A DNA stretch of 42,828 nt, taken from the IMG/VR virus record IMGVR_UViG_3300017447_000003, positions 1 to 42,828 of that record; one strand, given 5' to 3'. Under the pieces are notes generated by a model. The model saw only the letters and a list, made by a program, of their open reading frames with translations. It searched no databases and was not told where the DNA came from. Within the stretch, counting starts at the first letter, position 1. Each line of letters starts with the position of its first letter. This stretch comes from a virus. Both the position numbers and the translations under genes were made by a program. Positions 511 to 42,624 of the stretch are shown piece by piece.

Positions 511-560
511 CCTACGTGGGGCGGCTCCGGTCGCCCCACTCATTTAAAGGACGTGGTTGC

Positions 561-815
561 ATGGGCCAACTTATTGGTATTCAGGGTAAGGTAGACGAAC
601 ACGTACAGCGTATGCTTGCGGAGGAAACGCAGCTACACGACCGTATCGAACGCCTGTCCCGCTTCATTGCTACGCCGCGCTTCGGGCAGTTGTCCGAAGT
701 CGAGCAATCGTTGATGGCTTCGCAGCTTTTCACGATGCAGGCGTACAGCGCCATTCTCGGTACGCGGCTACAGCTTGCCACCGCGACCGGGGTTACGATC
801 CCCGGCAAGCAATAA
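561..815 (+). CDS. Small helical (coiled-coil-like) hypothetical protein, 84 aa
   Basis: ATG 561 has AAGGA 9 nt upstream. The track start GTG 516 has no SD. A TTTAAA motif lies at 543. No family recognised. Confidence 0.55.
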   Translation: MGQLIGIQGKVDEHVQRMLAEETQLHDRIERLSRFIATPRFGQLSEVEQSLMASQLFTMQAYSAILGTRLQLATATGVTIPGKQ

Positions 816-828
816 GGGAGTACGGCAG

Positions 829-1380
829 TTGAGCAAACTCAATTCAACCGACGTGGAAAACCTGCTGTCCGACAGCAAGGCCCCGCGCATCACCGACAAG
901 CATATCGATAGCGTCATCAAGGGCGAGACGTTCGCGCACCGGTTGACGGGTACGCTCACCGTTTGCATACTGACGCTGGCAAATGGTTTCACCGTCGTCG
1001 GCAAGTCGGCTTGCGCTTCGCCGGAGAACTACAACGAGGACTTGGGCGAACACTACGCCCGCGAGGACGCCAAGCGCCAGATTTGGCCGCTTGAGGCGTA
1101 CTTGCTGCGCGAGAAGCTGGCGCTTGCCGATAGGGCGGTTGTTCCCCCTTCCGTATCGATGCAGCGGTATGTCGGGTCCAAGGTTGTCAACGCCCGGCCT
1201 ATGTCGCGTGGCGCGTATGTCAGCTTGCGCGGCTGGGAGTTGCCCGCAGATGAAAACGCCATGGACGATGGCTACCTGATCGAATATGCCGACCGGTTCG
1301 ATGAAAACGTACCGGGCTTCCTCGGTTATATTTCGTGGTCGCCTGCCGACGTTTTCGAACGTGCATACGGACGCATTTAA
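829..1380 (+). CDS. Phage_gp49_66-like protein (N4 Gp49 / Sf6 gp66 family), hypothetical function
   Basis: TTG 829 has GGGAG 8 nt upstream; the track start at 775 would overlap the previous gene. The segment TLTVCILTLANGFTVVGKSACASPENYNEDLGEHYAREDAKRQIWPLEAYLL matches my memory of the Gp49/66 signature. The gene ends in the ATT TAA ATG junction. Confidence 0.5.
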   Translation: MSKLNSTDVENLLSDSKAPRITDKHIDSVIKGETFAHRLTGTLTVCILTLANGFTVVGKSACASPENYNEDLGEHYAREDAKRQIWPLEAYLLREKLALADRAVVPPSVSMQRYVGSKVVNARPMSRGAYVSLRGWELPADENAMDDGYLIEYADRFDENVPGFLGYISWSPADVFERAYGRI

Positions 1381-1382
1381 AT
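1375..1382. repeat. ATTTAAAT octamer (dispersed motif family)
   Basis: Forms the stop(TAA 1378-1380)/start(ATG 1381) junction. Full 10-mer CATTTAAATG. Confidence 0.9.
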
Positions 1383-2607
1383 GCTGTCCACCACCGCCCT
1401 AACGCCTGTAGGCAAAGCCCACGCTAAGACGCGTCCGCCTTCAAGCGCGGGGCGGTGGATACCCTGTCCCGGTTCCGCCACCGTATCGCCGCTGTACCCT
1501 AATGAGAGTAGCAGCCATAGCGAAAAAGGCGACGCCGCGCACCTTCACCTAGAAGACGGAATAGTATTCGGCATACGCCCTAATACTCAAGACCCCGATA
1601 TGGATATGAATATCTATACCGTGCTGGATTGGGTAGACGCGCGCCGAAAGGAATATGGCGATTGCCAAGTATTCGCAGAACAGCGGTACAACATACCGGA
1701 AACCGGGGAATTTGGTACGTGCGATATCACGTTCGTTACCCCCGCCATGCTGCATATTGCCGATTATAAGAACGGCTTTGTACTTACCGACGCAGTTGAA
1801 CAGACGATGACGTACCTGCTAGGCGCTATCGCCAAGTACGGTGAACGGCCGTCGTATCGCGTGACGGTAATACAGCCGAACCATAACCATATCGATGGCC
1901 CTATCCGTACCAGAGAGGTAACGAACGATGACGTATCCGCGTTTAGGCGGCAAGTCGAAATGGCAGTCGCTAGTACAGAGTTTCGAGCGGGAGCGCATTG
2001 CAAAAAGACGTACTGCGATCACCGGGGCAGTTGCATTACTTTCCTCGAATGGTGCCGCACTACGGGTGAAGACGCGTGGTACCCCCACGAAGTCAATGCT
2101 ATTGACGACAACGCGCTATCAGTCGCACTCGATCATGCCGACACCCTACACGGGGTACGCGACAGCTATCGAAAAGAGGCTATGCGACGTATTGCGCAGC
2201 ATGATCGACGCATCCCCGGATACAAGCTTGTCAAGTCGCGACAGCAACGCGACTTCGCTGGCGAGAGTGGCAGAGAGGCTTGCTATACCGCCCTACTAGC
2301 GATAGGGTACGGGCCGGACGACTTGTACGAGAAGAAACCTTTCAAGGTTGGTGCGCTTACTTTGCATGAACACACCGCCCTAACGGTCGCAGGTGTCGAA
2401 CGCATGGTTAAGCAAAAGTATAAGACGTTCGGCGCGGGCCGGTGGAAGAAAGTATGGGATGAACACTTCCGCCCCCACGTACGCGAGTTCTCCGGCTCCC
2501 TCACACTAGAGAGGGATACGGACGGGAGGCCGTCTCACACGCGCGGTAGTGAGTTTACGGCTTTGATTACCCCCGCGCATACTGCACAAGTTACACAAGT
2601 TTTATAA
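1381..2607 (+). CDS. PD-(D/E)XK nuclease, DUF2800 / Cas4-like (recombination or replication exonuclease)
   Basis: The N-terminal HAK..PSSAGRWIPCPGS is typical of DUF2800. It has IADYKNG (D/ExK) followed by EQTMTYLLG (QxxxY), and a C-terminal Cys cluster CKKTYCDHRGSC. It sits in the usual DUF2800-SSB-PolA arrangement. Confidence 0.75.
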   Translation: MLSTTALTPVGKAHAKTRPPSSAGRWIPCPGSATVSPLYPNESSSHSEKGDAAHLHLEDGIVFGIRPNTQDPDMDMNIYTVLDWVDARRKEYGDCQVFAEQRYNIPETGEFGTCDITFVTPAMLHIADYKNGFVLTDAVEQTMTYLLGAIAKYGERPSYRVTVIQPNHNHIDGPIRTREVTNDDVSAFRRQVEMAVASTEFRAGAHCKKTYCDHRGSCITFLEWCRTTGEDAWYPHEVNAIDDNALSVALDHADTLHGVRDSYRKEAMRRIAQHDRRIPGYKLVKSRQQRDFAGESGREACYTALLAIGYGPDDLYEKKPFKVGALTLHEHTALTVAGVERMVKQKYKTFGAGRWKKVWDEHFRPHVREFSGSLTLERDTDGRPSHTRGSEFTALITPAHTAQVTQVL

Positions 2608-2627
2608 GTTAGAAAGGTAGCCAAGTT

Positions 2628-3548
2628 ATGAAGCCGTATGCGAACAATGGCGGTAAGCCGATTTTCAATGAGGGCATTTCGCCCGTCGGTACCATCGTGC
2701 ATCTGTACCACGATAAGCCGCAACTCAAAACGTCCGACCAGTACGGCAAGGTGCCGGATATCGACCCGGATACGGGCGTTCAGAAGGCGGAGTACAAAGG
2801 TACTCTTGCATGGGACAAGTCGCGCGGTGGCGAATTGCAGGCCATGGTTGCGGACGCGCTCAAGACGCAAGAGGAAGGGTGGCCGGGCAGTTCTGCGCCG
2901 GGCGCGCACTTCGCGTTGCAGCCGTTTTTCCGCGACGGCGACAACCCGGAACATAATACGGAAAACCGCGACTACCTGCGCGGCAAGTACTATCTAAACT
3001 TCAAGAAAAAGGCCAAAATCGAAGCGCGCGATAAGTCGCTGCCGATTAGCCCACAGAACTACGTCTACACCGGCGCGCCGGGCTTGCTTGGCCCGTACGG
3101 GCCGGAAGACAAGATTATGTACGCGGATATCTGGCCCGGCTGCACCGGCCGTATCAGCTATACCATGTTCGCCACCGAATACATGGGTAAGCACTTTATC
3201 AGCGTGCGTATGCAGAACTTGCAGAAGTACGATGAAGGCAACGGCGTACGTATCGGCGGCGGCGGTACCCCGGCGGCGGAAAAACAGTTCGGCGCGCTCA
3301 TGCAGGGCCAGCCCCCGGCGCAGCAGCAGCAGAACATGTTCGGCATGGGCGCGGGTACGCCCCCGGCGCAGAACGGCGGCTTCAACTCGCCCGGTGCGGG
3401 TTCGCCACAGGGCCAGCAGAACCCTTTCGGGCTTGGGGGTGCTTCGCAACAGGGCAACATGTTTGCCCCTGCGCAGAACCCTTTCGGTGCCGCGCAGCCT
3501 GCCCCTACTAACAACCCGTTCGGCACCACGCCTAACCGCATCCTGTGA
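2628..3548 (+). CDS. ssDNA-binding protein (T7 gp2.5 / DUF2815-like) with a long Q/G/P-rich NxFG-repeat tail
   Basis: ATG 2628 has AAAGG upstream. The call rests on its position between the DUF2800 nuclease and PolA and on an N-terminal 230 aa globular domain resembling gp2.5-type SSBs. The C-terminal ~80 aa is low complexity with NMFG, NPFG, NMFA, NPFG, NPFG. Confidence 0.55.
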   Translation: MKPYANNGGKPIFNEGISPVGTIVHLYHDKPQLKTSDQYGKVPDIDPDTGVQKAEYKGTLAWDKSRGGELQAMVADALKTQEEGWPGSSAPGAHFALQPFFRDGDNPEHNTENRDYLRGKYYLNFKKKAKIEARDKSLPISPQNYVYTGAPGLLGPYGPEDKIMYADIWPGCTGRISYTMFATEYMGKHFISVRMQNLQKYDEGNGVRIGGGGTPAAEKQFGALMQGQPPAQQQQNMFGMGAGTPPAQNGGFNSPGAGSPQGQQNPFGLGGASQQGNMFAPAQNPFGAAQPAPTNNPFGTTPNRIL

Positions 3549-3604
3549 AGGGTAGGGCCGGGGTACCCCTCAAGTACCCCACTTCGCGAAGTACAATGGA
3601 GTGC

Positions 3605-3612
3605 ATTTAAAT
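3605..3612. repeat. ATTTAAAT octamer (dispersed motif family)
   Basis: Overlaps ATG 3611. Full 10-mer CATTTAAATG. Confidence 0.9.
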
Positions 3613-3913
3613 GGCAGACGTAAACGAACAGATCGCGCAGATCAAAGCCAACTCGCGTACGTTCATGTCCACCACGGCGCGGCAGGTTCTCGGCGGCTAC
3701 GTCGTCAACGGGCAGACGCAGTACATGGACAAGTCCACCGGCGGCGTGGTGCTGTCCGAGAACGCGGAAGGCGTCGCGCATACGGCGGAAGACGCCGCGC
3801 AGATGGGCCTCAACTTCCTGCGTTCGGGCAATTTCGACGGCAATATGCCCGCGCCCGCTCCGGCGGCCGATACCGGTCAGCAGAACATGTTCGGCAACCC
3901 GGCGACCATCTGA
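3611..3913 (+). CDS. Hypothetical protein, 100 aa, ending in QQNMFGNPATI
   Basis: The start reads GGAG-TGCATTTAA-ATG. It carries the same CAGCAGAACATGTTCGGC 18-mer as the two genes listed above. Confidence 0.6.
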   Translation: MADVNEQIAQIKANSRTFMSTTARQVLGGYVVNGQTQYMDKSTGGVVLSENAEGVAHTAEDAAQMGLNFLRSGNFDGNMPAPAPAADTGQQNMFGNPATI

Positions 3914-3914
3914 C

Positions 3915-6167
3915 ATGATTACCCTTGCCGCCCCTAGTATCGGCCACAACGGCGGGCCGTCGCTACATGGCGGCAAGGCACCGCGCATACACGTTGACTT
4001 CGAGTCGCGTTCCATCGTGAACATACGGCTTGGTGCTGACGTGTATGCGCGGCACTTTTCTACGTCACCTACTATGCTGTCTATCGTCGCCCCTCATGTA
4101 GGCGTGGCGTACGTTGAAGACTTTCTACTAGGTACCCCCGGATACCAGCGGAGTATTTACCCTTTCGCGAAACCCGGCGACTTGAATTTCCGCATGATTA
4201 AGCCCGCCTGCCCGCCTGTGATCCTACAAGCGATCCGCGAAGGGTGGACTTTTGTTGCGCATAACGCCCGCTTTGAACAAACGCTGTGGTATCATATTTG
4301 CCATATGCTGTGGGGCTGGCCAATGCCTTTAAATTGGTCCTGTACCGCTGCGCGTTCCCGGTATTGGGGTATCCGTGCGAGCCTTGAGGGTTCCGGTAGC
4401 GACTTGGAAATAGTATTCCAGAAGGACGAAAACGGCAAACAGTTTATCAATGACTTCTGCAAGCCGCGTAAGTGGAAGGGCGCGCAGAAACTAGGCGTCA
4501 TCAAAGAACTGTGGTACGAGCCGCAAGATAACCCGGAAGGGTGGCAACGCGGCTTGCGGTACTGTCTTACCGACAGCTACGCGGAAAAGGAAATTGACGA
4601 TATCTTGCCCGACTTGCCAGAGTTGGAACAACGGATATGGGATTTGGACTTCAAGATTAACGTACGCGGGTTGCCTATTGACCTACAGTCCGTTAACCGC
4701 GCTATCCAGTTCTCCGAACATTATACGGCCGTCAACTTCAAGCGGTTTGACGAGATTACCAGCCTGCGCCCGACGCAGCGCCAGAAGGTACTAGAGTACT
4801 TGCAGCAGCGCGAGGAAATAGACGAAATAGGCGACATGAAAAGCAAGACGATCAAACGTCTTGTTATGGACGACTTCCCGCCCGACTTGCGCGAAGTAAT
4901 TACTATCCAGCAGGAAAGTAGCAAGGCGTCCGTTAAGAAACTGTACCGCATGGAAGAATGTACGGATGACGACGGGCGCGCCCGTGGTGGCCATCTGTAC
5001 TACGGCGCGCATACCGGCCGCTGGTCGCACAAGCGTATCCAGACAGGCAACATGACGCGGCCGGACGCCAGCAAGCCGCAAGAGTACATGTTTGACTTTC
5101 TCGCGCACCCTGCGTGGCAGGAAGACGGCCCTAAAGTCGATAGCGCCAGCGTGGCGGGGCTTACGCATGAAATGCCGTATCAACCGGCATGGGTGCGGGA
5201 AGCGGGCGTACGCTTTATCCGGCCGCTCGGTTACTTGTCTACGTCTATGCGTGGTTTCATCAAACCGGAGCCGGGTAAAAAGCTAGTCGTTGGTGACTAT
5301 GCGCAAATCGAAGCCCGCGTACTTACGTGGCTGGCGCGCTGTATGTGGTTGCTTGAAGCTTTCGCGCGCGGCGATGATACGTACACCCGGTTCGCAGCCG
5401 ATCATATGTATCCGCACGAAATGGGGGGCTATGAGAACTGCATACAGGTAGTAAACGGCAAGCATAAGGTACTAAAGATATGGGTACCGCATCGCCAGAA
5501 AGCGAAGTCAGCGCAGCTAGGTTGCGGCTTCCAAGTTGGCGCACGCGGCTTTATGATCTACGCGGATAATATCGACCTTACTATAAGTGAGGAGGAAGCT
5601 ACAGACATTGTCCGCAAGTACCGCGACGCGCACCCGGAGATCGCGGACCCCGCGCTAGGCTTGTGGACCCGGATGAATAAGGCGTCCATACTTGCTGTCA
5701 ATAATGAGGGCGAAGTAATTGGCCTTGCGAATACCGGCATAACGTTCCACGTACACCGGCTAGACGCGGTGCGCTATTGGCTGATTATGACGCTGCCAAG
5801 CGGACGCCACGTTGCGTACTACAGGCCGAAAGTGCGTCGGGGCGTCAAGTGGGGCCGCACGGTCGAGATACTTAGCTTCCGTACCGAGTGGAACGGTAAA
5901 TCTTACCGGGAAGATACGTACGGCGGCAAACAGACCGAGAACGCAGTACAGGCCATCGCGCGTGACGTTTGCGGCATAGGTGCTTTAAATGTAGAGGCCG
6001 CTGGGTATCCCGTCATCGGGCTAGTACATGACGAATGCATAACCGAAACCGATATCGACTTCGGATCGCCGGAAGAAATGTGTTCCGAAATGTGCCGCCT
6101 ACCCCCATGGATTACGGACTTGCCAGTCGAGGCCGAAGGCGGTACGATGATGCGGTACGGTAAGTAG
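3915..6167 (+). CDS. polA: Family A DNA polymerase with 3'-5' exonuclease domain
   Basis: Exo motifs: HVDFESRS, HNARFEQ, YCLTDSYAE. Pol motif A is DYAQIEARVL, motif B is RQKAKSAQLGCGFQVG, motif C is LVHDECITE. Confidence 0.9.
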   Translation: MITLAAPSIGHNGGPSLHGGKAPRIHVDFESRSIVNIRLGADVYARHFSTSPTMLSIVAPHVGVAYVEDFLLGTPGYQRSIYPFAKPGDLNFRMIKPACPPVILQAIREGWTFVAHNARFEQTLWYHICHMLWGWPMPLNWSCTAARSRYWGIRASLEGSGSDLEIVFQKDENGKQFINDFCKPRKWKGAQKLGVIKELWYEPQDNPEGWQRGLRYCLTDSYAEKEIDDILPDLPELEQRIWDLDFKINVRGLPIDLQSVNRAIQFSEHYTAVNFKRFDEITSLRPTQRQKVLEYLQQREEIDEIGDMKSKTIKRLVMDDFPPDLREVITIQQESSKASVKKLYRMEECTDDDGRARGGHLYYGAHTGRWSHKRIQTGNMTRPDASKPQEYMFDFLAHPAWQEDGPKVDSASVAGLTHEMPYQPAWVREAGVRFIRPLGYLSTSMRGFIKPEPGKKLVVGDYAQIEARVLTWLARCMWLLEAFARGDDTYTRFAADHMYPHEMGGYENCIQVVNGKHKVLKIWVPHRQKAKSAQLGCGFQVGARGFMIYADNIDLTISEEEATDIVRKYRDAHPEIADPALGLWTRMNKASILAVNNEGEVIGLANTGITFHVHRLDAVRYWLIMTLPSGRHVAYYRPKVRRGVKWGRTVEILSFRTEWNGKSYREDTYGGKQTENAVQAIARDVCGIGALNVEAAGYPVIGLVHDECITETDIDFGSPEEMCSEMCRLPPWITDLPVEAEGGTMMRYGK

Positions 6168-6180
6168 GAGGTTGCAAACC

Positions 6181-6615
6181 ATGGACATTGAACAGGGCGC
6201 TATGACGCTCGCCGGGAAGTCGTGCCTGATCGAAGTGGACGAGGATTACTGGCTATCCCTCCCCGACGACCGGCAAGTCTACTGCAAAGAGGTATGGACC
6301 GAGAAGGCCCGCCAGCAGCCCGATACGGCCCGCGTGGTGCTGCGTCTGATCCCCGACGCCCTTTTCCCCATGCACGGCCACGACAAGCCCTATATCGCGT
6401 GGCAGGCCGATATTGACCGGCCCCCGGAATGCGGCTTTACGGTCGATACCGTCGTAACGATCACCGTTAACACGGATAGTAAGTACGTAGACCCGGTTAT
6501 GCGCGCAGATATTTCCGGGCGGCTTGCTGGCGTACGCGTACAGGCTGTAACGTACGGGGCCACGTTCCGCATCGTGAATGCGCGCGGCGACGTAATCGAA
6601 CACGGCAGGCTGTAG
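6181..6615 (+). CDS. Hypothetical protein, 144 aa
   Basis: ATG 6181 lies 10 nt after GGAG (6167-6170). The track start TTG 6172 is too close to the SD. Confidence 0.55.
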   Translation: MDIEQGAMTLAGKSCLIEVDEDYWLSLPDDRQVYCKEVWTEKARQQPDTARVVLRLIPDALFPMHGHDKPYIAWQADIDRPPECGFTVDTVVTITVNTDSKYVDPVMRADISGRLAGVRVQAVTYGATFRIVNARGDVIEHGRL

Positions 6616-6812
6616 TGTTCAACCCGCTACTAGATACCGTCGTACGTGAACGTACATGGTACGATATAGCGGAGTGGTTACAGAACCATATTGAGTACGG
6701 CGTTAGGCGCGGCAAGCCTGCATTTAAATGGCTTAACGTCCTAGACCTGATCGATAGCGAAGCTGCCGCGTATTGGCGCGGTGCGGCATGGGAGGTATAC
6801 CCGCGTGCTTGA
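6615..6812 (+). CDS. Hypothetical protein, 65 aa
   Basis: GTG start overlaps the upstream TAG (TAGTG). Contains an in-frame CATTTAAATG (A-F-K-W). Confidence 0.45.
   Translation: MFNPLLDTVVRERTWYDIAEWLQNHIEYGVRRGKPAFKWLNVLDLIDSEAAAYWRGAAWEVYPRA
6722..6729. repeat. ATTTAAAT octamer (dispersed motif family)
   Basis: Inside ORF 6615..6812, read as GCA TTT AAA TGG. Full 10-mer CATTTAAATG. Confidence 0.9.
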
Positions 6813-7197
6813 GAGTGTAGTAGAGGGCAAGCTTAAGCGGCTTGAGGGCTTCGGGTTTAAGTCGCTCAAGCTGCGTACGCCGGGGTACAACGGTACCAAA
6901 GACCGGCTTATACTGTGGCCTACTTGGTCGCCCGGCCCGCGTGGCCCTGTCATGGTCGAGTGCAAGGCCCCCGGTAAGCACGAACGTGCGCTGCAAGAGG
7001 CCGTACGCAAAGACTGGATAGCGCGCGGTTGCGACGTACGCGAAATGGTGGATACGCCCGCCAAGGTAGATGCTCTTTGCGGCGCGCTGCTGATAGAGGC
7101 TGTAGACCGCTTACCGCTGTTCGAACGCCCTGCGCTGCCCGTTCATATTCAAAACGCGTACTTCGCGGCTGTCAACAGTTTGGTTGTATCTGCATGA
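6805..7197 (+). CDS. VRR-NUC domain nuclease
   Basis: GTG 6805 has GGGAGG 9 nt upstream. The segment GTKDRLILWP....VMVECKAPGKHERALQEAVRKDWIARG fits the VRR-NUC PD-(D/E)XK core (D...ExK...Q). Confidence 0.7.
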   Translation: MLESVVEGKLKRLEGFGFKSLKLRTPGYNGTKDRLILWPTWSPGPRGPVMVECKAPGKHERALQEAVRKDWIARGCDVREMVDTPAKVDALCGALLIEAVDRLPLFERPALPVHIQNAYFAAVNSLVVSA

Positions 7198-8891
7198 TTA
7201 CTCTAGCCGCCGCGCCGTTGCTTGATTACATTTCGCCGGGGTACCACCTGACAAAGGGGTACACGATGCGGAAGTATCAAGTGCGTGCGGCGCAAAAGAT
7301 ATTTGAAGGAACCCCGACCCGTGACATACAAACAGGCTTATATATTGGCCCTGAACGCGATGGTACTAATGTTCATATCGATATGGGCTTGGGTAAGACC
7401 ATCATTGGACTCACTGCTATTGCTGATTGGTACCGGTGGGGTGTATGTAGCCGCCCCACTCTTGTACTGGCACCAATCAAAGTATGCGAGACTGTATGGC
7501 GACAAGAGGCTGCGCAGTGGTCACACACTAATCATCTGCGTATCGGCCATTTGCTTGGTAACGAGCGTGATCGCGCATTCACTCTAGCGCGGGCGTACAA
7601 CGAGCAAACAGGCGTACGCGGGTATGATATCATACTTTGCAACCCCGAGAAGCTAAAGTGGTTGATGCGCTACCTGCGCGACAATTGGGGGTTTTTCGAC
7701 GCGCTGGTAATCGATGACGTGGGCCTGAAAGACCCGAAGTCCGGCCAGTTCAAGATTATTACCAACTACGGCAAGCACGTTGCCAAGGTGGACCCGTTCA
7801 CCGGTAAAGCTGCTGTGCCGCGCGAGTACCTAGACGTACCGCCGCACCGCTTTAAACGTGCTGCCAAGTTGACCGGTACGCCAAGTACTTCCGGCCTGCA
7901 CAACCTGTGGGCGCCGAACTACATCATGGATCATGGGGCGCGGCTCATGTCCAATCATGCCAGCTTTGAAGGGCGGTTCTTCCACAAAGGCCACCAAGTA
8001 GCGGAGCATGTCACCAAGCTAGAACTAAACGCAGAGGAAGGGGAGAGTAGGCCCGCGTACATCGCACGCGAGGGCGCACCCGAACGTATGCACGAGTTGA
8101 TAGCGGACATTACTATCGAACTTAACGCGGAAGACTACGGCGTACTACCAAAGGTGCTAGGTGACGCCAGCAAAGGCAACCTAGACGTTACTACGCCCAC
8201 GCACGTACATCGCGTAGAACTACCCGGCGAACTGCGCGCAAAGTACGACGTGCTAGAGCGCGACGCCATCATAGAATTGTCGGGCAATACGGCTATGGCG
8301 CAGAACGGCGGCGCAAAGTCCATGATGTGCTGGCAAATAGCTAACGGCGCAATGTACGTGCAAGACGCGTTCGGTGTAAATGAAGCGCAGCCGCTCCACG
8401 ACGCCAAGCTAGATAAGATGGTAGAACTGATCGACCGTATCAATTCCACCGTTATCATTCCGTACTACTTTCAGCACGACTACGCCCGCATCGTTGCGCG
8501 GCTCGAAAAGGAACAAATGGCGTGGGCGTCATTAAAGGGCCGGAATACGGAACGCATCGTAAATCAATGGAACGAGGGGCGTATTCCTGTACTGTTGTTG
8601 CATCCGCAAAGCGCCGGGCATGGGTTGAACTTGCAATTTGGGGGCCACCACTTCATTTGGTTTACCCTCCTTTGGTCGCTAGAGCGGTACTTACAGACCC
8701 TTGCGCGGCTCGCGAGGTCGGGACAAGTTGGCGTGGTGCAGAACCACCATATCGTTACCTCGCGAACGACCGATGAACTTATGCTGGCCAACCTGCGCCA
8801 GAACGGCGACGATCAAAGCCGTTTCCGCGCAGCATTGCGCGAGTACCAGCGGTTGCGCGGTATCGACTACATTACGCAGGGGGCGTTATGA
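7194..8891 (+). CDS. SNF2/RAD54-family helicase
   Basis: ATG 7194 overlaps the upstream stop (ATGA). Motif I is DMGLGKTIIGL, motif II region is DALVIDDVG, motif V is LLLHPQSAGHGLNLQ, motif VI is LARLARSGQ. Confidence 0.85.
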   Translation: MITLAAAPLLDYISPGYHLTKGYTMRKYQVRAAQKIFEGTPTRDIQTGLYIGPERDGTNVHIDMGLGKTIIGLTAIADWYRWGVCSRPTLVLAPIKVCETVWRQEAAQWSHTNHLRIGHLLGNERDRAFTLARAYNEQTGVRGYDIILCNPEKLKWLMRYLRDNWGFFDALVIDDVGLKDPKSGQFKIITNYGKHVAKVDPFTGKAAVPREYLDVPPHRFKRAAKLTGTPSTSGLHNLWAPNYIMDHGARLMSNHASFEGRFFHKGHQVAEHVTKLELNAEEGESRPAYIAREGAPERMHELIADITIELNAEDYGVLPKVLGDASKGNLDVTTPTHVHRVELPGELRAKYDVLERDAIIELSGNTAMAQNGGAKSMMCWQIANGAMYVQDAFGVNEAQPLHDAKLDKMVELIDRINSTVIIPYYFQHDYARIVARLEKEQMAWASLKGRNTERIVNQWNEGRIPVLLLHPQSAGHGLNLQFGGHHFIWFTLLWSLERYLQTLARLARSGQVGVVQNHHIVTSRTTDELMLANLRQNGDDQSRFRAALREYQRLRGIDYITQGAL

Positions 8892-34701: not shown

Positions 34702-35322
34702 ATGGCTACCAGCAACTACCAGTACGAGACGCGCGAAGCTTGGCTTAACGCCTTTGTCACCCTCGCGCGCCCGCACTTTGACCGCGTTGGCGCGCCGCTA
34801 CCTGAAAAGCTGCGCGTATCGGTAGGGTTCACGTCGCATGGTGTACGCTCCAATGCGGTAGGCGAGTGCTGGCAGGACAGCGCAAGCGCAGATGGTCACT
34901 TTGAGATATTCCTAAAGCCGACTACCGAGACGGACGCGCGCATAGCCGACATACTTACGCATCAACTGTGCCGCGCTGCCGTAGGTATCGACGTAGGCCA
35001 CGGTCCCGCGTTCCGTAAGATCGCAACTGCCCTTGGCCTCAAGGGTAAGATGACTTCCACCACGGCTAGCAGCGTATGGTATGAGTGGGCCTTGCCCATT
35101 CTGGATATCATCGGGCCTATGCCGTACGCCGCACTCATGGACGGCAAGTCCACCGCCAAGCCGAAACAGCGTACTAACCTACTCAAGGTGTACTGCCCGT
35201 CGTGCGGCTTCACGGCACGCATTACGCGCAAGCATATTATTCCGCATACTCATTTAAATTGCCCTGTACCCGACTGCGTAAGCGTGCTACATACTGACAA
35301 CGACAACACGGAAGCGGAGTAA
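34702..35322 (+). CDS. SprT-like protein with a C-terminal Zn-ribbon and a degenerate metalloprotease motif
   Basis: ILTHQLCRAAVG sits where SprT-type proteins carry HExxH. The C-terminal YCPSCGFTARITRKHI....LNCPVPDCVSVL is a SprT-type zinc ribbon. Confidence 0.45.
   Translation: MATSNYQYETREAWLNAFVTLARPHFDRVGAPLPEKLRVSVGFTSHGVRSNAVGECWQDSASADGHFEIFLKPTTETDARIADILTHQLCRAAVGIDVGHGPAFRKIATALGLKGKMTSTTASSVWYEWALPILDIIGPMPYAALMDGKSTAKPKQRTNLLKVYCPSCGFTARITRKHIIPHTHLNCPVPDCVSVLHTDNDNTEAE
35252..35259. repeat. ATTTAAAT octamer (dispersed motif family)
   Basis: Inside the SprT-like gene, read as CAT TTA AAT (H-L-N). Confidence 0.9.
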
Positions 35323-35329
35323 TTTAAAT
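35322..35329. repeat. ATTTAAAT octamer (dispersed motif family)
   Basis: Bridges stop TAA 35320-35322 and ATG 35328. Part of GGAGTAATTTAAATG. Confidence 0.9.
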
Positions 35330-36665
35330 GAACCGGGATGCAGTCAACGATGCGCTTACGACGCTCGCAGGCACCGGCCGCGTATGTACGCCGCTTCGCA
35401 TGAACCAGCGTATCGGCCTGTGCGCGCTGCTACACGGCTATCAACCGGATATGAAGCCGAACGATATCAAGCTTGTCGGGGAACGCGACCTGTGCGCGCT
35501 GTACGACAACGCCTGTATCAGCATTGATCGCGGCTTGCCCGTCTCGCAGAACATCGCGCGCAAGTATCAGCCTAACCCGCTGCTGGATACGCCCGCCGCT
35601 CCCGTCATCAACCCGGTAACGCTCAAGCCCGCGCCGTTCACGGTGGATGAACTGGCGAAGCCCGCCCCCGCTGCTGACATGTCGCAGTACGCCAAGCGTT
35701 CGTACGTCGATCAAAAGGCGTCGGACCTGTCCACCGAGTACCGGGGCAAGGTGCGCGAGTTGCAGACGGAAGCGAACCAGCATCAAAAGAACCTTACCGA
35801 GACGTTGCTAAAGTTTACCGACGCGCTGCCCGAAGTCATCCGCGCGGAAGTAGTCGCATCGCTCAAGGCTCTTACGCCCGTTACGCTTACCGTCGTACTG
35901 CCGAATGAAGCGCCCGCCGCTATCGGCATGGTACACAACAAGCTGCCGCAACTTATCAAGATGCTCGCAGCCGGTGGCCATGTCTATCTGCACGGCCCGG
36001 CCGGTTCGGGTAAGACGACGGCCGCCAAGCAATGCGCAGACGCCTTTAAGCTGCCGTTCTACTTCGCCGCCAAGGTGGAAAGCGAATACATGCTGCTAGG
36101 CTTTAAGGATGCGCGGGGCGAGACTGTACGTACGCAGTTCCGCGAAGCGTACGAGCATGGCGGCGTATTCCTCTTTGACGAATTGGACGGCTCTAGCCCT
36201 AGCGCAGTAGTCGCCATGAACGCCGCGCTCGCTAACGGTATCTGCCCCTTCCCCGATGGCATCATTAACATGCACGCGGACTTTAAGTGCATCGGTGGCG
36301 GCAATACCAAGCTGTCCGGCGCAACGCGCGAGTACGTGGGCCGCAACCAGCTTGACGCAGCGTCCGTTGATCGGTTCGACTTCCTCGAATGGGGGTACGA
36401 TGACGCTCTAGAGTCCGCGATTGCCACCAACGCTAACTGGTGCGCGTACGTACAGTCGGCACGCAAGGCTGTAGCTGACCGCTCGCTTAAGCATCTGGTT
36501 ACGCCGCGTGCGACGTACCGGGGCTGCAAGCTGCTGGAAGGCGGCCTTACTTGGGAGGAAACCGAGACTGCCGTACTGTGGAAGGGGCTTGACGATGAAA
36601 CTGTATCGCAGCTAAAGCGTAGTATGCCGGTGAAGGCACCGAAGCCGGTTGAAGGGATACTATGA
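35328..36665 (+). CDS. AAA_5 (MoxR/CbbQ/dynein-related) ATPase with a ~200 aa N-terminal extension
   Basis: Walker A is HGPAGSGKTT and Walker B is VFLFDELDGS. A sensor region follows. The start reads GGAGTAATTTAAATG. Confidence 0.8.
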   Translation: MNRDAVNDALTTLAGTGRVCTPLRMNQRIGLCALLHGYQPDMKPNDIKLVGERDLCALYDNACISIDRGLPVSQNIARKYQPNPLLDTPAAPVINPVTLKPAPFTVDELAKPAPAADMSQYAKRSYVDQKASDLSTEYRGKVRELQTEANQHQKNLTETLLKFTDALPEVIRAEVVASLKALTPVTLTVVLPNEAPAAIGMVHNKLPQLIKMLAAGGHVYLHGPAGSGKTTAAKQCADAFKLPFYFAAKVESEYMLLGFKDARGETVRTQFREAYEHGGVFLFDELDGSSPSAVVAMNAALANGICPFPDGIINMHADFKCIGGGNTKLSGATREYVGRNQLDAASVDRFDFLEWGYDDALESAIATNANWCAYVQSARKAVADRSLKHLVTPRATYRGCKLLEGGLTWEETETAVLWKGLDDETVSQLKRSMPVKAPKPVEGIL

Positions 36666-37504
36666 TGCAGTACGTGCGCGACGGCGGTAAGCACTTCTAC
36701 CAGTTCGATAGCATGGCGGAAATGCAGCGGTACGTTGATACGCACCCGCAAACGTGGAAGGACGGGGATAGCAGCCGTACCATAGGCCGCGCCCCGTCGT
36801 GGGATATGAATGTCGGCTATGATGGCGCGGTACGTATGGCGCGCGACGGCTGGCTAGAGGGCGCACGGCGCGCACAGAAGGCCCTTGAAGTGTTTGTACC
36901 CCGTGACCCCGCCCCGGCGACGCGGAACGACTTCTACGGCCATCTGCCCCACGTCCCGCGCTTCTGTGCGGGTGCGCCAGATAGCATGATCCGGTATGCG
37001 CCCGACCCTCTTAGCGGTACGGGCCGCGTCGTTACCGTATACGTAGCCATATCGACCGGCGCGGGTTCGGACGCGGACTACATGGCTAACTACGGCGTAG
37101 CCATTGCGCAGTACGTCAACCAGCTTGAACAGGCGGGCAAGCGGGTTGAACTGTTCGCGTGCAAGTATTCCAGTGACTACCCCGGCAACGAGGAACAGGG
37201 CATAGCGTGGCGCGTGAAAGCGGCAGACCAGCCTATCGACTTGGCGGTACTGACGTTCGCCTTTCACCCCGCGTGCTTTCGCCGCATCGTCTTTGCCATG
37301 CTGGAACGTTCGGCCGTCACCCGCAAGCCGTACGGCTACGGCATCCCGTCCGAACTCACCGAAAAGTGCGTTATCAACCCGCCCGTGGGCGCGTACTACC
37401 TTAACGGCATGAAACGCGTTAACTCGTTTGCTAAGACGGTCGAAAGCGCACTTGAGTACGTCTCTAAGCAAATCGGCATCGCTGCCGATACGGAAAGGGA
37501 GTAA
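36662..37504 (+). CDS. Hypothetical protein, 280 aa; possible vWA/Rossmann-like partner of the AAA_5 ATPase
   Basis: ATGA overlap with the ATPase gene. The strand-loop-helix-strand pattern VVTVYVAISTGAGSDADYMANYGVAIAQYVNQLEQAGKRVELFA resembles a vWA core, but the MIDAS Asp is missing. Confidence 0.5.
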   Translation: MMQYVRDGGKHFYQFDSMAEMQRYVDTHPQTWKDGDSSRTIGRAPSWDMNVGYDGAVRMARDGWLEGARRAQKALEVFVPRDPAPATRNDFYGHLPHVPRFCAGAPDSMIRYAPDPLSGTGRVVTVYVAISTGAGSDADYMANYGVAIAQYVNQLEQAGKRVELFACKYSSDYPGNEEQGIAWRVKAADQPIDLAVLTFAFHPACFRRIVFAMLERSAVTRKPYGYGIPSELTEKCVINPPVGAYYLNGMKRVNSFAKTVESALEYVSKQIGIAADTERE

Positions 37505-38855: not shown

Positions 38856-39674
38856 ATGCGTATCGCGACTTTCGGCCTGCTGGCCAGTGCAATGCCCCTG
38901 ATGATGGCCACCAACCCCGACGCGCTCGGCGGACTCGGCGGCGCGACGCTCGGTACCGGCGGCCTCACCGCGCCGAACGACATGTCGCCCACGGCCGCCG
39001 GACTGCCCGCCCCGACCGGCGACGCACCCGCCCCGGCCGCCGACAATCCGAACGCGTTCGCGTTCCGTATCCCGAACACGGAAACGGATATCGGTATCGA
39101 TATCGCGCAAATCCCGGCCGAAGTCCGGCTCGACTTCCTGAAAAAGGGGCTGCGCGACTACATCACCAACGCCGTCAATCAGGCCAACATCCGCACGACC
39201 AAGGCCAACGCGCCGCACGACGCGTACGACGAAGCCATGAAGGCGGACGCGATGCAGACGGCCGTGGCCAAGCCGACCGGCGAACGCGGCAAGGCGGACC
39301 TGATCGGTACGGCCGCCGCCGCGCGCGAACGCCTGTACAAGGGCGAAGTGCGCCGGCAGGGCGAGGGCGGCGCAACGCCGCGTCAGACCGTGGACCCGCT
39401 CACCAAGCTGGTTACGGAAGCCGTCGTGCGCGAACTGCACGAGAAGGACAAGGCGGCGGGCGGCAAGCGCAAGTACACCGAGTTTACGGCCGAAGTCGCC
39501 AAGGCGGGCGGCGGCGTCAAGTATCTGGAACAGAAGATCACCGAGAAGGTGGCGGCCGGTACGGATGAAGCGGTCCTCCGCAAGTTCATGGACGACCGGT
39601 ACATCAAGCCCGCACAGATGATGCTGGGCCAGAAGACCGGCAAGTCCACGGCCCCGGAAAACTCCATCCTGTAA
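38856..39674 (+). CDS. Hypothetical protein, 272 aa, with a hydrophobic N-terminus and a Lys/Glu-rich C-half
   Basis: GGAG lies 8 nt upstream of ATG 38856. The competing Arg-rich ORF 38792..39568 is in another frame and looks spurious. Confidence 0.6.
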   Translation: MRIATFGLLASAMPLMMATNPDALGGLGGATLGTGGLTAPNDMSPTAAGLPAPTGDAPAPAADNPNAFAFRIPNTETDIGIDIAQIPAEVRLDFLKKGLRDYITNAVNQANIRTTKANAPHDAYDEAMKADAMQTAVAKPTGERGKADLIGTAAAARERLYKGEVRRQGEGGATPRQTVDPLTKLVTEAVVRELHEKDKAAGGKRKYTEFTAEVAKAGGGVKYLEQKITEKVAAGTDEAVLRKFMDDRYIKPAQMMLGQKTGKSTAPENSIL

Positions 39675-39974: not shown

Positions 39975-40145
39975 ATGGTACGTGAGTTCGAAGGCCCCGA
40001 CGCGGGCAAAGAGGCGTACGACTTCTACAAGCGCCGCCGTAGCGCCCTCGCACGGCCGTACAACGGCAAGTGGCTCGTGGCGTCGCCTGCCTGCGCCATC
40101 ATCGGCCACCCGTCGTGCGAAGTGCGAAAACCCCGCTTGACGTAG
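39975..40145 (+). CDS. Possible small gene, 56 aa (below the ORF-track cutoff)
   Basis: GGGAG lies 9 nt upstream of ATG 39975. Translated by hand: MVREFEGPDAGKEAYDFYKRRRSALARPYNGKWLVASPACAIIGHPSCEVRKPRLT, with stop TAG at 40143-40145. Confidence 0.4.
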   Translation: MVREFEGPDAGKEAYDFYKRRRSALARPYNGKWLVASPACAIIGHPSCEVRKPRLT

Positions 40146-40213
40146 ACGACCGACCTGATAGGAGGGGGCCGGGCATTGCAACCGCCCTCCTTCCACGGCC
40201 CTAGGCCGCCCCC

Positions 40214-40247
40214 GAAGCCCGCCAGCGCCCTAACGCTGGCGGGCTTC
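40214..40247 (+). terminator. Strong hairpin (terminator/attenuator) upstream of the primase gene
   Basis: GAAGCCCGCCAGCG-ccctaa-CGCTGGCGGGCTTC has a perfect 14 bp stem. The pyrimidine tract after it is weak (CUCGUU). Confidence 0.55.
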
Positions 40248-40314
40248 CTCGTTATAGCGATCAACGGTTTAGGCCCTTGACAGCGCATCCTAGACAGCCC
40301 TAGGTGGCATCCTC

Positions 40315-42624
40315 TTGACGGACGTACCGCATAGGCCGCGCGCCAGAGGCTTAGGGGCTTCGCGCAGCTTGGACGTACTGGCGAGGCATGGGGATGGCTA
40401 TTACGTGGACCTTGATTACCACCAAATACACAATGCACTGACTGCGATAGTACCCCCCGGCGCTGTCTTTGAACTGCGCTTGCTTGGGTCGCGTAAAGGG
40501 CAGATCGATAGCGGCTACTTTGATAGCCCGGCGCTGGCGGCGAACGCCATTGTATCCGCTAGCGGGTACTACAAGGGCATGTACTTTACGCCTAACCCGG
40601 TCATGTCGGACGCGCTGGCGCGCAGCTACAACCGCGTAACGCCGTGGTCGCAGCATACGACGCAAGACCCGGAAGTTACCCGCCGCCGCTGGCTTATGGT
40701 CGATATCGACGCCCGCCGCCCGGTAGGTATTTCCAGCAGCGTGGCAGAACATGCAGCTACTTTAAATTGCGCGCACGCCATCGCCGCCGTGCTTACCATG
40801 ATGTACGGTTTCCCCGATCCAATGATAACGGATAGCGGCAACGGTGCATGGCTAATGTACCGGGTGGATGAAGAAAACAGCGATACGGTACGGGATGAAT
40901 TCCATACGTTCCTGCGCATCCTGAAAAAGCAATACGATAGCCCGCTGATCGACATGGATACGACCGTGTACAACGCGTCGCGTATCAGCCGTATTCCGGG
41001 TACGTGGGCGCGTAAGGGCGATAGCACGCCCGACCGGCCGCACCGTAGGAGTTCTATCGTACGCCATGCCGACGCGTTTAAGACGCTATCGGTAATCAGC
41101 ATCATGCGGTTTAACGCCGCTAATCAGCATCTTTTGCAGGGCGAAGCCAGTAAGCCGGGGGGCGTTAAGAAAAACGCTAATGAATACCCGCAGGATGAAG
41201 CTTTGTATAAGCGTCTTAATGAGTACGCCATGCGTAATCTTAAGACATGGGTTCCGCATTTCTTCCCGACTGCCCGCGAATACAAAGAGGGCTACCGGGT
41301 AATGAGTGTAGACATAGGACAGACCTATGAGGAAGACCTAACTATTCACCCATGGCCCTTGGGTATTAAGTACTTCGGGGCGGGCGATCAAGGCGACAGT
41401 ACGGAAGGGCGGCGAACGCCCGTCGCGACCATTGCGGAGTACGGCTTACAGACGACCGACAAGGGCCTAGCCGCTCGCAAGCTGTCCGATGTACTTAGCT
41501 TCCCGATCAACGAAATGGGGGCTATCCCGCCACAGACGCAGCTTACCACGCTTACGGCTGGCTTGTCCGCTGCGCCGGGGGCTGGCATGGGGGCGCTACT
41601 AGGCACTAAGCCGACTTTCTCATTTAAAGGCATCCGCAACATAGCGGACCTGAATAAGAAAGAGTTCAAGCAAATTACGTGGGCCGTCAAAGACGTACTG
41701 CCCGCCGGGAACATACTGCTAGCCGCGCGCCCTAAGATGCGTAAGACATGGCTAGCCTTGCAGCTATCGCTAGCCATCGCGCGCGGGCGGCCGTTCCTAG
41801 GTTGGGAGTGCGAGCAAGGCGACGTACTGTTCCTAGGGCTAGAGGATAACGAGCGCCGCGTACAGAACCGTATCAAGACGCTACAGAAGTTTGAGATTGA
41901 TGGCGGCGACTTGTCGGGCTTTCGGTATTGGACGGGCGGCATGGACTACAACGGGGCGGGACAGCTTACGCTTACCAACCCGGAGGAAGAACAGGCGTTG
42001 CTATCCGCCTTCCCGCGTGGGGAGGCTGGCGTAGACGCACTTGAACAGTACTTGGAACAGTTCCCTAAGACAAAGCTTGTAGTAGTCGATACGCTTAACC
42101 ACTTTCGCGGCGAACGTACCAGCCGGGACATATACCAGTCCGACTATGATGCTATGATGCCGATTACCAAGCTTGCGAACCGCAAGGGCGTATGTATCCT
42201 GCCCGTCACGCACGAAAAGAAAGGCAACGCGGATAGGGGCGTCGGTGGCGACTTTCTAGAGGACGTGACCGGTTCGGCGGGTATCAGTGGCGGCGCGGAT
42301 GGCGTTATGTCCATCAAGGGCCGCCGGGGTGTACAAGAGGAAAACGAGAGCCGTAAGCTGTACCTGTCCGGACGCGACGTACCTTTCGACTATGAAGTCG
42401 ATATTTCGTTTGACGCGGAGCGCGGAGGATGGCTAAAAGCGGCGAAGGAAGACGTTAAGGTTGCAATTCGGGCGCTTCTCACGACGCACCCGTTTCTTAA
42501 CCAGAGAGATATTCAGAATTTGCTCCCTAACGCGGGGCAGGCCCGCCTGTATCGGGCGCTAACCGACATGAAGTTGGAAGGCGAGATCGATCAAGGCAAG
42601 TTCGGGTACTGTCTCAAGCGATAG
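40315..42624 (+). CDS. Primase-helicase fusion: N-terminal AEP-type primase-polymerase domain plus C-terminal RepA/DnaB-like (AAA_25) ATPase
   Basis: TTG 40315 has AGGTGG 7 nt upstream. AEP motifs are WLMVDIDA (DxD), DSGNGAWLMY and ASRISRIPGT. The ATPase has Walker A-like ARPKMRKTW and Walker B LVVVDTLNHF. Confidence 0.75.
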   Translation: MTDVPHRPRARGLGASRSLDVLARHGDGYYVDLDYHQIHNALTAIVPPGAVFELRLLGSRKGQIDSGYFDSPALAANAIVSASGYYKGMYFTPNPVMSDALARSYNRVTPWSQHTTQDPEVTRRRWLMVDIDARRPVGISSSVAEHAATLNCAHAIAAVLTMMYGFPDPMITDSGNGAWLMYRVDEENSDTVRDEFHTFLRILKKQYDSPLIDMDTTVYNASRISRIPGTWARKGDSTPDRPHRRSSIVRHADAFKTLSVISIMRFNAANQHLLQGEASKPGGVKKNANEYPQDEALYKRLNEYAMRNLKTWVPHFFPTAREYKEGYRVMSVDIGQTYEEDLTIHPWPLGIKYFGAGDQGDSTEGRRTPVATIAEYGLQTTDKGLAARKLSDVLSFPINEMGAIPPQTQLTTLTAGLSAAPGAGMGALLGTKPTFSFKGIRNIADLNKKEFKQITWAVKDVLPAGNILLAARPKMRKTWLALQLSLAIARGRPFLGWECEQGDVLFLGLEDNERRVQNRIKTLQKFEIDGGDLSGFRYWTGGMDYNGAGQLTLTNPEEEQALLSAFPRGEAGVDALEQYLEQFPKTKLVVVDTLNHFRGERTSRDIYQSDYDAMMPITKLANRKGVCILPVTHEKKGNADRGVGGDFLEDVTGSAGISGGADGVMSIKGRRGVQEENESRKLYLSGRDVPFDYEVDISFDAERGGWLKAAKEDVKVAIRALLTTHPFLNQRDIQNLLPNAGQARLYRALTDMKLEGEIDQGKFGYCLKR

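Follow-up and report, generated by a model that had tools for sequence, protein, structure and literature searches.

TTTAAA, an over-represented, evenly spaced and positionally conserved palindrome in a clade of ~42-kb podophages

HIP1 (GCGATCGC), a palindrome of cyanobacterial genomes, is over-represented and conserved in position, and no peptide, RNA or expression role has been found for it (PMC5861425); in cyanobacteria it is methylated (PMC6105098). Here we describe a comparable element, the hexamer TTTAAA, in the DNA of an uncultured phage represented by the IMG/VR record IMGVR_UViG_3300017447_000003. The window, that is, the whole stretch of 42,828 nucleotides that was analysed, is a complete circular assembly (MEGAHIT contig of ENA ERZ27250601, k = 141) with a GC content of 59.0%, in which a 123-bp end overlap is an artefact, so that the unique length is 42,705 bp. 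HIP1 is the closest analogue of the TTTAAA element: both are short exact palindromes found in many-fold excess, at about one copy per gene, inside as well as between open reading frames (ORFs) and at conserved positions. HIP1, however, is GC-rich, 8 bp long, methylated and carried by cellular chromosomes with a reported periodicity of 10-90 kb, whereas TTTAAA is an AT-only word in the GC-rich DNA of a phage of lytic type, evenly spaced at ~1 kb, surviving where most other palindromes have been purged, and switched for another word within the clade. Our search of the literature found no such element described in phages, and HIP1 was the sole analogue for evenly spaced over-represented palindromes.

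Several other systems resemble the element in part. The motifs that specify single-strand interruptions in T5, phiKMV and tf/LUZ24 are likewise short, dispersed over podophage or siphophage genomes, conserved among relatives and without a role in gene expression, but they are asymmetric and rarer (few to ~14 per genome); TTTAAA and its flanks are palindromic, and nicking of both strands at such sites would therefore break the chromosome. Primase signals (5'-GTC for T7 gp4, GTG for pRN1 ORF904, ssiA/ssiB for RSF1010 RepB') set primer starts and have Okazaki-scale spacing, but they are trinucleotides or 40-nt hairpins, asymmetric, and not known as evenly spaced or positionally conserved. With the KorB OB sites of RK2 and the C1 operators of P1, one protein is served by at least a dozen short, often palindromic sites genome-wide; these operators are, however, 13-17 bp long, lie at promoters and are unevenly distributed, whereas TTTAAA is mostly found mid-gene. 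Finally, the restriction enzymes DraI (TTTAAA), SwaI (ATTTAAAT) and AseI (ATTAAT) read identical words, with the same all-or-none 6-bp palindromic specificity, yet Type II sites are avoided in phages: the window avoids at least 19 of them, while TTTAAA is 11-fold enriched and conserved.

TTTAAA is present 36 times in the window, against 3.2 copies expected at zero order (11.3-fold, z = 18), and is the top hexamer by z-score; other non-overlapping AT-only hexamers reach seven copies at most (AAATTT 1, TATAAA 0, TTTTAA 1). The extended forms ATTTAAAT and CATTTAAATG occur 15 and six times, and ATTTAAA or TTTAAAT is found at 29 of the 36 sites. All these counts, as well as the 36 start positions, had been given by a first-pass annotation made from the letters alone, and proved exact on recount. 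The over-representation that it claimed survives both the hexamer ranking and shuffling. Dinucleotide-preserving shuffles (n = 500) yielded a mean of 7.3 TTTAAA (maximum 17; the observed number is 4.9 times the mean) and of 0.37 ATTTAAAT (maximum 2), and when synonymous codons were shuffled gene by gene, leaving junctions and intergenic DNA untouched (n = 1000), 18.1 ± 1.7 TTTAAA resulted (maximum 25). By the codon-shuffle null, ~3-4 copies are therefore expected in coding DNA, where ~21 are seen (~6-fold). About 60% of the sites are intragenic, and the early and late transcription arms have equal TTTAAA density. TTA is the rarest leucine codon (38 of 971), and 14 of these 38 codons fall in T-TTA-AA; Phe-Lys is spelled TTTAAA in 8 of 25 cases, compared with ~7% expected from codon usage. 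With our own gene calls, which are GC3-based, the intragenic sites divide into ~14 read as xxT TTA AAx and 7-8 read as TTT AAA, a split that replaces the earlier 16:5. The window contains no tRNA genes, and a tRNA account for the TTA codons thus fails.

The word itself is sharply delimited, since its one-mismatch variants occur at 0.16-1.35 times expectation and none is enriched. Its flanks were analysed along the sense strand at 205 sites that lie within genes, taken from 15 genomes. Position -1 is A or C in 90% of the 129 sites read as xxT TTA AAx and in 87% of the 76 sites read as TTT AAA; position +6 is T or G in 90% and 72%, respectively. These two flanking positions occupy different codon positions, with different backgrounds, in the two frames. 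Mirror-symmetric flanks in both frames therefore define the element as an 8-bp palindrome, MTTTAAAK, which is present at 28 of the 36 window sites against ~0.8 expected, and the same symmetry relative to the sense strand speaks against a signal at the mRNA level. The orientation of TTTAAATG is also unbiased (14 sense, 12 antisense). The extension to ATTTAAAT is peculiar to the lineage of the window; relatives mostly have CTTTAAAG, and two of them (L040 and L042) together carry 59 TTTAAA sites, mostly flanked by C...G, with not a single ATTTAAAT.

The relatives compared are metagenomic fragments of ~5-22 kb each. Positional conservation was measured in four of them, L191, L111, L193 and L194, with a nucleotide identity to the window of 72-78%. 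Window TTTAAA sites are retained exactly in 11 of 12, 10 of 12, 4 of 7 and 4 of 8 cases, respectively, compared with 15-28% for background hexamers. When all hexamers are ranked, TTTAAA is the most conserved (29 of 39, 74%, against a baseline of 20.6%; P = 9e-13, the kinship among the relatives inflating the independence of these counts and the baseline being drawn from the identical alignments), and the next-ranked words are only those that overlap it. The first-pass annotation had named this comparison beforehand among those on which its proposal should stand or fall, and the sites were found in place. Even where the encoded amino acids are identical, TTTAAA is kept in 15 of 20 and 7 of 11 cases (22 of 31 in all) against a baseline of 33%, and the intergenic sites 28045 and 30323 are kept in 3-4 relatives. 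The sites are thus under purifying selection at the nucleotide level; together, the codon shuffles, the TTA tally and this conservation bear out the earlier suggestion that the motif is kept up as nucleic acid against codon preference. In more distant relatives the positions of the sites turn over, sometimes by a few bases, and their density stays.

Earlier described as dispersed, the sites are indeed not clustered, but mere dispersal does not describe them: the gaps in the window are more even than random (coefficient of variation, CV, 0.63; P about 0.0004-0.0009), while reaching up to 3.3 kb. A gap CV of 0.34-0.76 was found in 12 of 13 trait-positive loci, with P ≤ 0.05 in nine and 0.054 in a tenth, and among pooled normalised gaps both short (5.9% versus 18% expected) and long ones (2.6% versus 8.2% expected) are deficient. 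The most regular example is L191, where 23 sites have a gap CV of 0.34 and all gaps measure 417-1616 bp irrespective of gene borders; its polA gene holds three sites, that of the window two. The supposed greater density in the control region is weak, with two sites in an intergenic stretch of 716 bp.

In trees of the major capsid protein and of polA the TTTAAA trait is confined to one clade of ~42-kb podophages. All sampled members of this clade have a 3.5-15-fold excess, at 0.8-2.4 sites per kb, with L036 as the ATTAAT lineage described below. L199, from the sister clade, lacks TTTAAA altogether and iterates no other word either. It does encode orthologues of the primase-helicase (56% identity), of polA (60%), of the single-stranded DNA-binding protein (SSB), of the exonuclease and of the SNF2 protein, and consequently the replisome family as such does not depend on the motif. 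Its background also matches that of the window (GTAC 4-fold, 17 palindromic hexamers absent) and thus does not explain the motif. No gene other than the ORF considered next had a presence that tracked the trait when trait-positive loci were compared with L199. ORF 3611-3913 (100 aa), found in all trait-positive loci and undetected in L199, was considered as the reader and dropped; its product is acidic, has five detectable homologues and is not DNA-binding-like. A scan of IMG/VR for the exact 15-mer GGAGTAATTTAAATG, which three window sites share, gave a single GC-rich match, L210, with 15 TTTAAA; A/T runs are equally common there, the flanks are non-consensus and the CV is 1.37, and it does not represent the same phenomenon.

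L036 (Ga0247676_1000054, 1-18229), which is nested in the clade, has 7 TTTAAA but 31 ATTAAT, against 4.0 expected. Ile-Asn is spelled ATTAAT in 21 of 22 cases, and 33 other palindromic hexamers are absent. TTTAAA and ATTAAT have a common TTAA core and differ in the outer base pair alone, and L036 looks like a specificity switch in whatever reads the sites. ATTAAT is followed by G in 22 of 31 cases, a flank bias on the sense strand, several copies serve as starts of the form SD-ATTA-ATG (SD, Shine-Dalgarno sequence), and the spacing is not even (CV 0.96). ATTAAT stands at TTTAAA positions of relatives in 2 of 12 mapped cases, compared with 0.3 expected, which is a weak correspondence.

Thus, TTTAAA, or MTTTAAAK in its full form, is a selected cis-acting DNA signal, required at intervals of about a kilobase throughout the chromosome. 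On these data, its reader must be symmetric on the duplex or use both strands equally, and must be sharply specific, lineage-specific and independent of particular genes; the identity of this protein and the process in which it takes part we infer from what follows. The genome has a podophage-like layout with two divergent arms. The early, replication arm encodes an AAA ATPase, a DUF7192 protein, the primase-helicase, a PD-(D/E)XK exonuclease, an SSB of the gp2.5/Enc34 type, PolA and an SNF2 ATPase, and the late arm the small and large terminase subunits (TerS and TerL), portal, major capsid protein, tail and lysis genes. No RNA polymerase was found among the window genes.

Our preferred reading, to which we give a probability of about 0.3, is that the phage AEP primase fused to a RepA-like helicase (Table 1) enters the DNA or primes at these sites. 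This enzyme would lay lagging-strand primers at Okazaki-scale intervals on either strand, and if it were site-dependent, each strand of the genome would have to carry sites at Okazaki spacing. A palindrome would be the cheapest two-strand site, at half the coding cost, in a compact genome unable to afford other palindromes, and the sites would be placed where the cost is least: in Leu-Lys/Asn and Phe-Lys codon pairs, in the spacer between ribosome-binding site and ATG, and at TAA-ATG junctions. RepB' primes solely at ssi sites, which are specific and lie on opposite strands, some PrimPols strictly depend on a site, and pRN1 ORF904 requires a GTG template motif. The N-terminal domain of the window protein has the invariant DxD and SGNGAH motifs; its predicted structure (AlphaFold, pLDDT 81) has cyanophage S-2L PrimPol and RSF1010 RepB' as best Foldseek matches, and the C-terminal part matches the RSF1010 helicase RepA and Pfam AAA_25. 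Relative to the TTG called by the ORF finder, the database copy P0121 (739 aa, 100% identical) begins 30 codons further downstream (40315-40404 excluded), and the ATG at 40405 is probably the true start.

Several points weigh against such a role of the primase. Nothing ties it directly to the motif, and L199 has the orthologous primase-helicase yet zero TTTAAA. The primase signals known to us are 3 nt long and asymmetric, and we know of no palindromic one. The existence of two independent palindromes, TTTAAA and ATTAAT, argues for a dimeric binder of duplex DNA rather than a monomeric reader of single strands, and the ATTAAT sites of L036 are uneven and mostly followed by G. More broadly, it falls only a little short of an even chance that we are dealing with a genome-wide phage cis-element of a new sort: an exact palindrome at ruler-like ~1-kb intervals that would provide landing sites for a symmetric protein, with a switchable word, a genome co-evolving with its reader and all other palindromes purged, the reader being a site-dependent replication or packaging enzyme and not a transcription factor.

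A serious, if somewhat unlikely, alternative to the primase is a two-fold-symmetric duplex-DNA-binding protein, of the phage or of its host, for which the sites would be landing places and which would organise, coat or globally regulate the chromosome; HIP1, the KorB operators of RK2, and ParB, which loads at parS and then spreads over a kilobase or two, offer comparisons. The 8-bp palindrome would suit such a protein, M/K at its outer positions being typical of dimers with direct read-out, and so would the combination of all-or-none specificity and even spacing, and the ATTAAT of L036 with its common TTAA core is what a specificity switch would be expected to produce. Domain searches, however, detected no HTH, ParB, RHH or similar domain in any window protein, no gene tracking the trait by its presence was found, and a protective coat is hard to reconcile with extreme restriction-site avoidance. 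HIP1 shows the same pairing of over-representation with conserved positions, and no function at gene level has been found for it (PMC5861425). The alphaproteobacterial nucleoid-associated proteins that favour AT-rich DNA lack a sharp motif (GapR: PMC13408042), and the idea that GapR reads the sites was dropped.

We attach little weight to the possibility that the sites are cutting positions preferred by the terminase in headful packaging, where a site would be needed within a capsid tolerance of ~2-4% of the genome (~1-1.7 kb), leading to even coverage. The assembly is circular with its junction inside a gene, which is compatible with circular permutation, TerS and TerL are present, most gaps are shorter than 2 kb, and a two-strand cut by paired nuclease domains might favour a palindrome. 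Gaps in the window nevertheless reach 3.3 kb, and to our knowledge headful cuts are sequence-independent in all phages studied.

Most other short palindromes of the genome show the opposite tendency to TTTAAA. Seventeen palindromic hexamers with 6-28 expected copies each are wholly absent from the window (CCCGGG, CCGCGG, GGGCCC, CTGCAG, GAGCTC, GTCGAC, GGATCC, AGGCCT, CAGCTG, CTCGAG, GACGTC, GTGCAC, GCATGC, AGCGCT, TGATCA, AGATCT and ACTAGT), and 19 of 32 well-expected GC-containing palindromes are essentially absent, as against 6% of non-palindromes. CCWGG, GDGCHC, CTNAG/CCTNAGG and CTGGAG are missing likewise, and relatives have the same avoidance list. GANTC, the CcrM/HinfI word, is present 7 times versus ~95 in shuffles, with zero GAATC/GATTC, and is equally depleted in trait-positive relatives, which fits an alphaproteobacterial host or HinfI-type restriction. 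The avoided words may resemble those of acetic-acid bacteria enzymes (AatI/AatII, ApaI/ApaLI, GsuI and others), a likeness that we presume. In L054 (Ga0181352_1000475), a more distant relative, CTCGAG occurs 29 times versus 4.9 expected, and CTGCAG, AGCGCT and CAGCTG are enriched 4-6-fold, these being words that the window lacks; this profile is probably that of ordinary codon-pair usage without restriction pressure, and zero-order expectations consequently understate the strength of avoidance in the window. The composition is unusual in other respects. GTAC (514 copies in the window, 3.3-fold) is in excess throughout the clade and in the trait-negative L199, but not in L036, and its conservation is mildly above that of other tetramers (45% versus 34%). 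Self-complementary dinucleotides are all over-represented (TA 1.35, CG 1.36, GC 1.27, AT 1.09), and GTA is the preferred valine codon (42%) and CTA makes up 22% of leucine codons, both unusual for 59% GC.

It is similarly improbable, in our view, that TTTAAA is the target of a DNA methyltransferase or an enzyme of the restriction-modification type of the usual host, the phage using the mark or the enzyme, for instance as an epigenetic signal of timing or self. Sharp six-base palindromes that differ by lineage are a hallmark of Type II systems (TTTAAA being that of DraI and ATTAAT that of AseI), in L036 the avoided palindromes differ along with the switched word, suggesting another host, and HIP1 is methylated in cyanobacteria. 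But if there were a cognate endonuclease, its sites should have been lost like all others, and carrying many of them has no known benefit; moreover, no real window gene contains a methyltransferase motif of the form (D/N/S)PP(Y/F), and there was no Pfam, PHROG or NCBIfam match to a methyltransferase. In the trait-positive relative L197 an N6/N4 DNA methyltransferase gene (9653-10414) lies right after polA, at the place where the window has an unrelated ORF of 147 aa (6172-6615).

Position relative to genes bears on a signal acting in RNA or translation. Seven window genes start with the arrangement GGAG-N3-4-(A)TTTAA-ATG (sites 1376, 3606, 9709, 23863, 25395, 30323 and 35323), with 1376 and 30323 forming TAA-ATG stop/start junctions as well. 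Up to three further sites could be of this start type, among them 37505, which together with 9709 and 35323 has the identical 15-mer GGAGTAATTTAAATG; the other ~26 have no start context. Four start-type sites were found in L191, and at most one among the 59 sites of L040 and L042. We read the start-region sites as an obligatory DNA word placed without codon cost, a lineage-specific economy and not the origin of the excess, although they may also help initiation in GC-rich mRNA. That the motif as a whole is an AU-rich enhancer of starts, a pause at rare TTA codons, an RNase E site or the slippery heptamer U_UUA_AAN is very unlikely, and as a general cause the RNA or translation level is largely refuted. 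The 7-10 start-type sites of the window, three of them with the identical 15-mer, the four of L191 and the dominance of the xxT TTA AAx frame (129 versus 76) would agree with it, but start-type sites are a minority, the flanks are mirror-symmetric and TTTAAATG shows no strand bias, sites read as TTT AAA and intergenic sites are conserved too, and two palindromes in two lineages would be unlikely for an RNA signal. The RNase E role put forward in the first-pass annotation is disfavoured by the symmetric flanks, by the second palindrome ATTAAT and by AU-rich one-mismatch words not being enriched, and a generic role in unwinding or bending, also listed there, clashes with the all-or-none specificity against AAATTT, TATAAA and TTTTAA.

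Other sequence signals were tried and rejected. Against a promoter element (a sigma-70 -10 box or the T4-late-type TATAAATA), ~60% of the sites are intragenic and there is no orientation bias, the site logo has no information upstream of -3 that would point to a partner element, and the promoter scan was not above shuffles. Against the -1 frameshift heptamer, 76 of the 205 intragenic sites have the frame TTT AAA and many others lie between genes, and the alphaproteobacterial CtrA box (TTAA-N7-TTAA) has 0 matches in the window.

That TTTAAA is a non-functional by-product of odd composition (TA-/GTAC-rich codon choice under restriction-site avoidance) or of biased repair is already refuted: the trait does co-occur with GTAC enrichment, a TA odds ratio of 1.35 and the loss of about half of the GC-containing palindromic hexamers, but L199 has the same GTAC excess (4-fold) and palindrome loss with zero TTTAAA, codon-preserving shuffles leave ~3-4 coding sites where ~21 are observed, the motif has no cytosine for repair of the very-short-patch type, and composition cannot yield positional conservation, even spacing or symmetric flanks.

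Cultured relatives of the phage are remote. A blastn search with the polA-SNF2 region gave no match among GenBank phages, and tblastn with the portal found relatives only at ≤30% identity (Brucella Tb, Mx8, BUCT555). Metagenomes contain many relatives of ~41-43 kb, and the nearest named record, a contig binned in an alphaproteobacterial metagenome-assembled genome, is the sole hint on the host. Between TerS and TerL lies an ORF of 140 aa (32176-32598, minus strand) that matches phrog_979 (terminase large subunit) at positions 191-291, the same stretch that the full TerL (30324-31946) matches; judged by this similarity, it could be an ATPase fragment, either duplicated or left as a remnant. Gene 18972-21125 (minus strand) contains CTGCTGC-rich, in-frame tandem repeats of 54/108 bp at 19641-20066, which account for a clustered excess of CAGCAG/CTGCTG (113 versus 27 expected; CV 1.5-2.1). 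The control region at 33380-33830 is locally AT-rich and dense in short inverted repeats containing GTAC and TATA, such as AGTACATTTAAATGCGTTCAATGTACT at 33728-33755 and GTATACATATAC near 33801; no sigma-70-type promoter above shuffles was detected in the divergent control region, and 0 terminators in 31.8-35.5 kb. Sequence searches of the PDB with the products of 38856-39674 and 34702-35322 gave no match, and an exact look-up of the capsid protein of the window returned no record.

Table 1. TTTAAA sites of the window, the candidate reader and GANTC sites (SD, Shine-Dalgarno sequence; minus-strand genes are marked (-))
Feature	Coordinates	Strand	Context	Position in relatives
TTTAAA	543-548		inside 516-815 (+), TTT AAA; flank cA..Gg	L191 site 1 nt away
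TTTAAA	1376-1381		stop/start junction: TAA of 775-1380, ATG of exonuclease gene 1381-2607; CATTTAAATG	exact in L191
TTTAAA	3606-3611		SD-ATG spacer of 3611-3913; GGAGTGCATTTAAATG	exact in L191
TTTAAA	4328-4333		inside polA, xxT TTA AAx	exact in L191, L196
TTTAAA	5984-5989		inside polA, xxT TTA AAx	exact in L191, L193, L197
TTTAAA	6723-6728		inside small ORF 6615-6812, TTT AAA; CATTTAAATG	exact in L191; 9 nt off in L194
TTTAAA	7851-7856		inside SNF2-family helicase gene, TTT AAA	exact in L191, L193, L194
TTTAAA	8974-8979		inside ORF 8888-9220, xxT TTA AAx	exact in L191
TTTAAA	9709-9714		SD-ATG spacer of fibre gene 9317-9709 (-); GGAGTAATTTAAATG	
TTTAAA	10402-10407		within poorly coding stretch 10242-10808	
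TTTAAA	12039-12044		overlaps stop of ORF 12040-12462 (-), else intergenic; CCTTTAAAGG	
TTTAAA	14158-14163		inside 12462-14816 (-), xxT TTA AAx	
TTTAAA	15387-15392		inside 14816-16924 (-), xxT TTA AAx	exact in L111, L191, L194
TTTAAA	16332-16337		inside 14816-16924 (-), xxT TTA AAx	exact in L111, L191, L193, L194
TTTAAA	18281-18286		inside 16924-18978 (-), xxT TTA AAx	
TTTAAA	21016-21021		inside 18972-21125 (-), xxT TTA AAx; G at -1 (non-consensus flank)	not kept in L111
TTTAAA	21227-21232		inside 21118-21564 (-), xxT TTA AAx	exact in L111, L035
TTTAAA	22659-22664		inside 21564-23156 (-), TTT AAA	exact in L111, L039
TTTAAA	23863-23868		SD-ATG spacer of 23153-23863 (-); AGGAGGACATTTAAATG	exact in L111
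TTTAAA	25395-25400		SD-ATG spacer of 24883-25395 (-); GGGAGTACATTTAAATG	exact in L111
TTTAAA	27441-27446		inside 26430-27734 (-), TTT AAA	exact in L111, L002; TTCAAA in L001
TTTAAA	28045-28050		intergenic, 3 nt past portal stop; TTGACGTTTAAAG	exact in L111, L001, L002
TTTAAA	29506-29511		inside portal gene, xxT TTA AAx	exact in L002; shifted 6 nt in L001, L033
TTTAAA	30323-30328		terminase-large stop / portal start junction; GGGGGTTTAAATGG on minus strand	exact in L111, L001, L002, L033
TTTAAA	31522-31527		inside terminase large subunit gene, xxT TTA AAx	exact in L111, L001, L033
TTTAAA	32117-32122		between terminase-large gene and ORF 32176-32598	
TTTAAA	32858-32863		inside terminase small subunit gene 32737-33336 (-), xxT TTA AAx	
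TTTAAA	33310-33315		inside terminase small subunit gene, TTT AAA	
TTTAAA	33736-33741		divergent control region; CATTTAAATG; off-centre repeat AGTACAT (33728-33734) / ATGTACT (33749-33755) around site	
TTTAAA	34010-34015		control region, 36 nt before the ATG of 34052-34621; flank non-consensus (T at -1)	
TTTAAA	34646-34651		intergenic, 24 nt past stop of 34052-34621	
TTTAAA	35253-35258		inside 34702-35322, xxT TTA AAx	
TTTAAA	35323-35328		SD-ATG spacer of AAA ATPase gene 35328-36665; GGAGTAATTTAAATG	
TTTAAA	37505-37510		directly 3' of stop of 36662-37504; GGAGTAATTTAAATG; ATG at 37510	
TTTAAA	40761-40766		inside AEP primase-helicase gene, xxT TTA AAx	exact in L191, L193, L194, L195
TTTAAA	41623-41628		inside AEP primase-helicase gene, TTT AAA	exact in L191
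AEP (PrimPol) primase fused to RepA-like helicase	40405-42624	+	candidate reader	
GANTC	4002, 7408, 13489, 23622, 29267, 36411, 38932			

Short palindromes should tend to disappear from phage genomes, as most have here; the TTTAAA that is instead enriched about 10-fold, evenly spaced and selected points to a chromosome-wide requirement at the DNA level that lies outside current phage annotation. With 42.7 kb and 36 sites the system is small, and it comes with natural controls in the form of a word-switched relative and a site-free sister, so that a function of the HIP1 type could become testable. Digestion with DraI would yield a ~1-kb ladder diagnostic of the clade. If the reader is indeed the AEP primase-helicase, this would be the first replication enzyme to impose a long sequence code on a whole genome.

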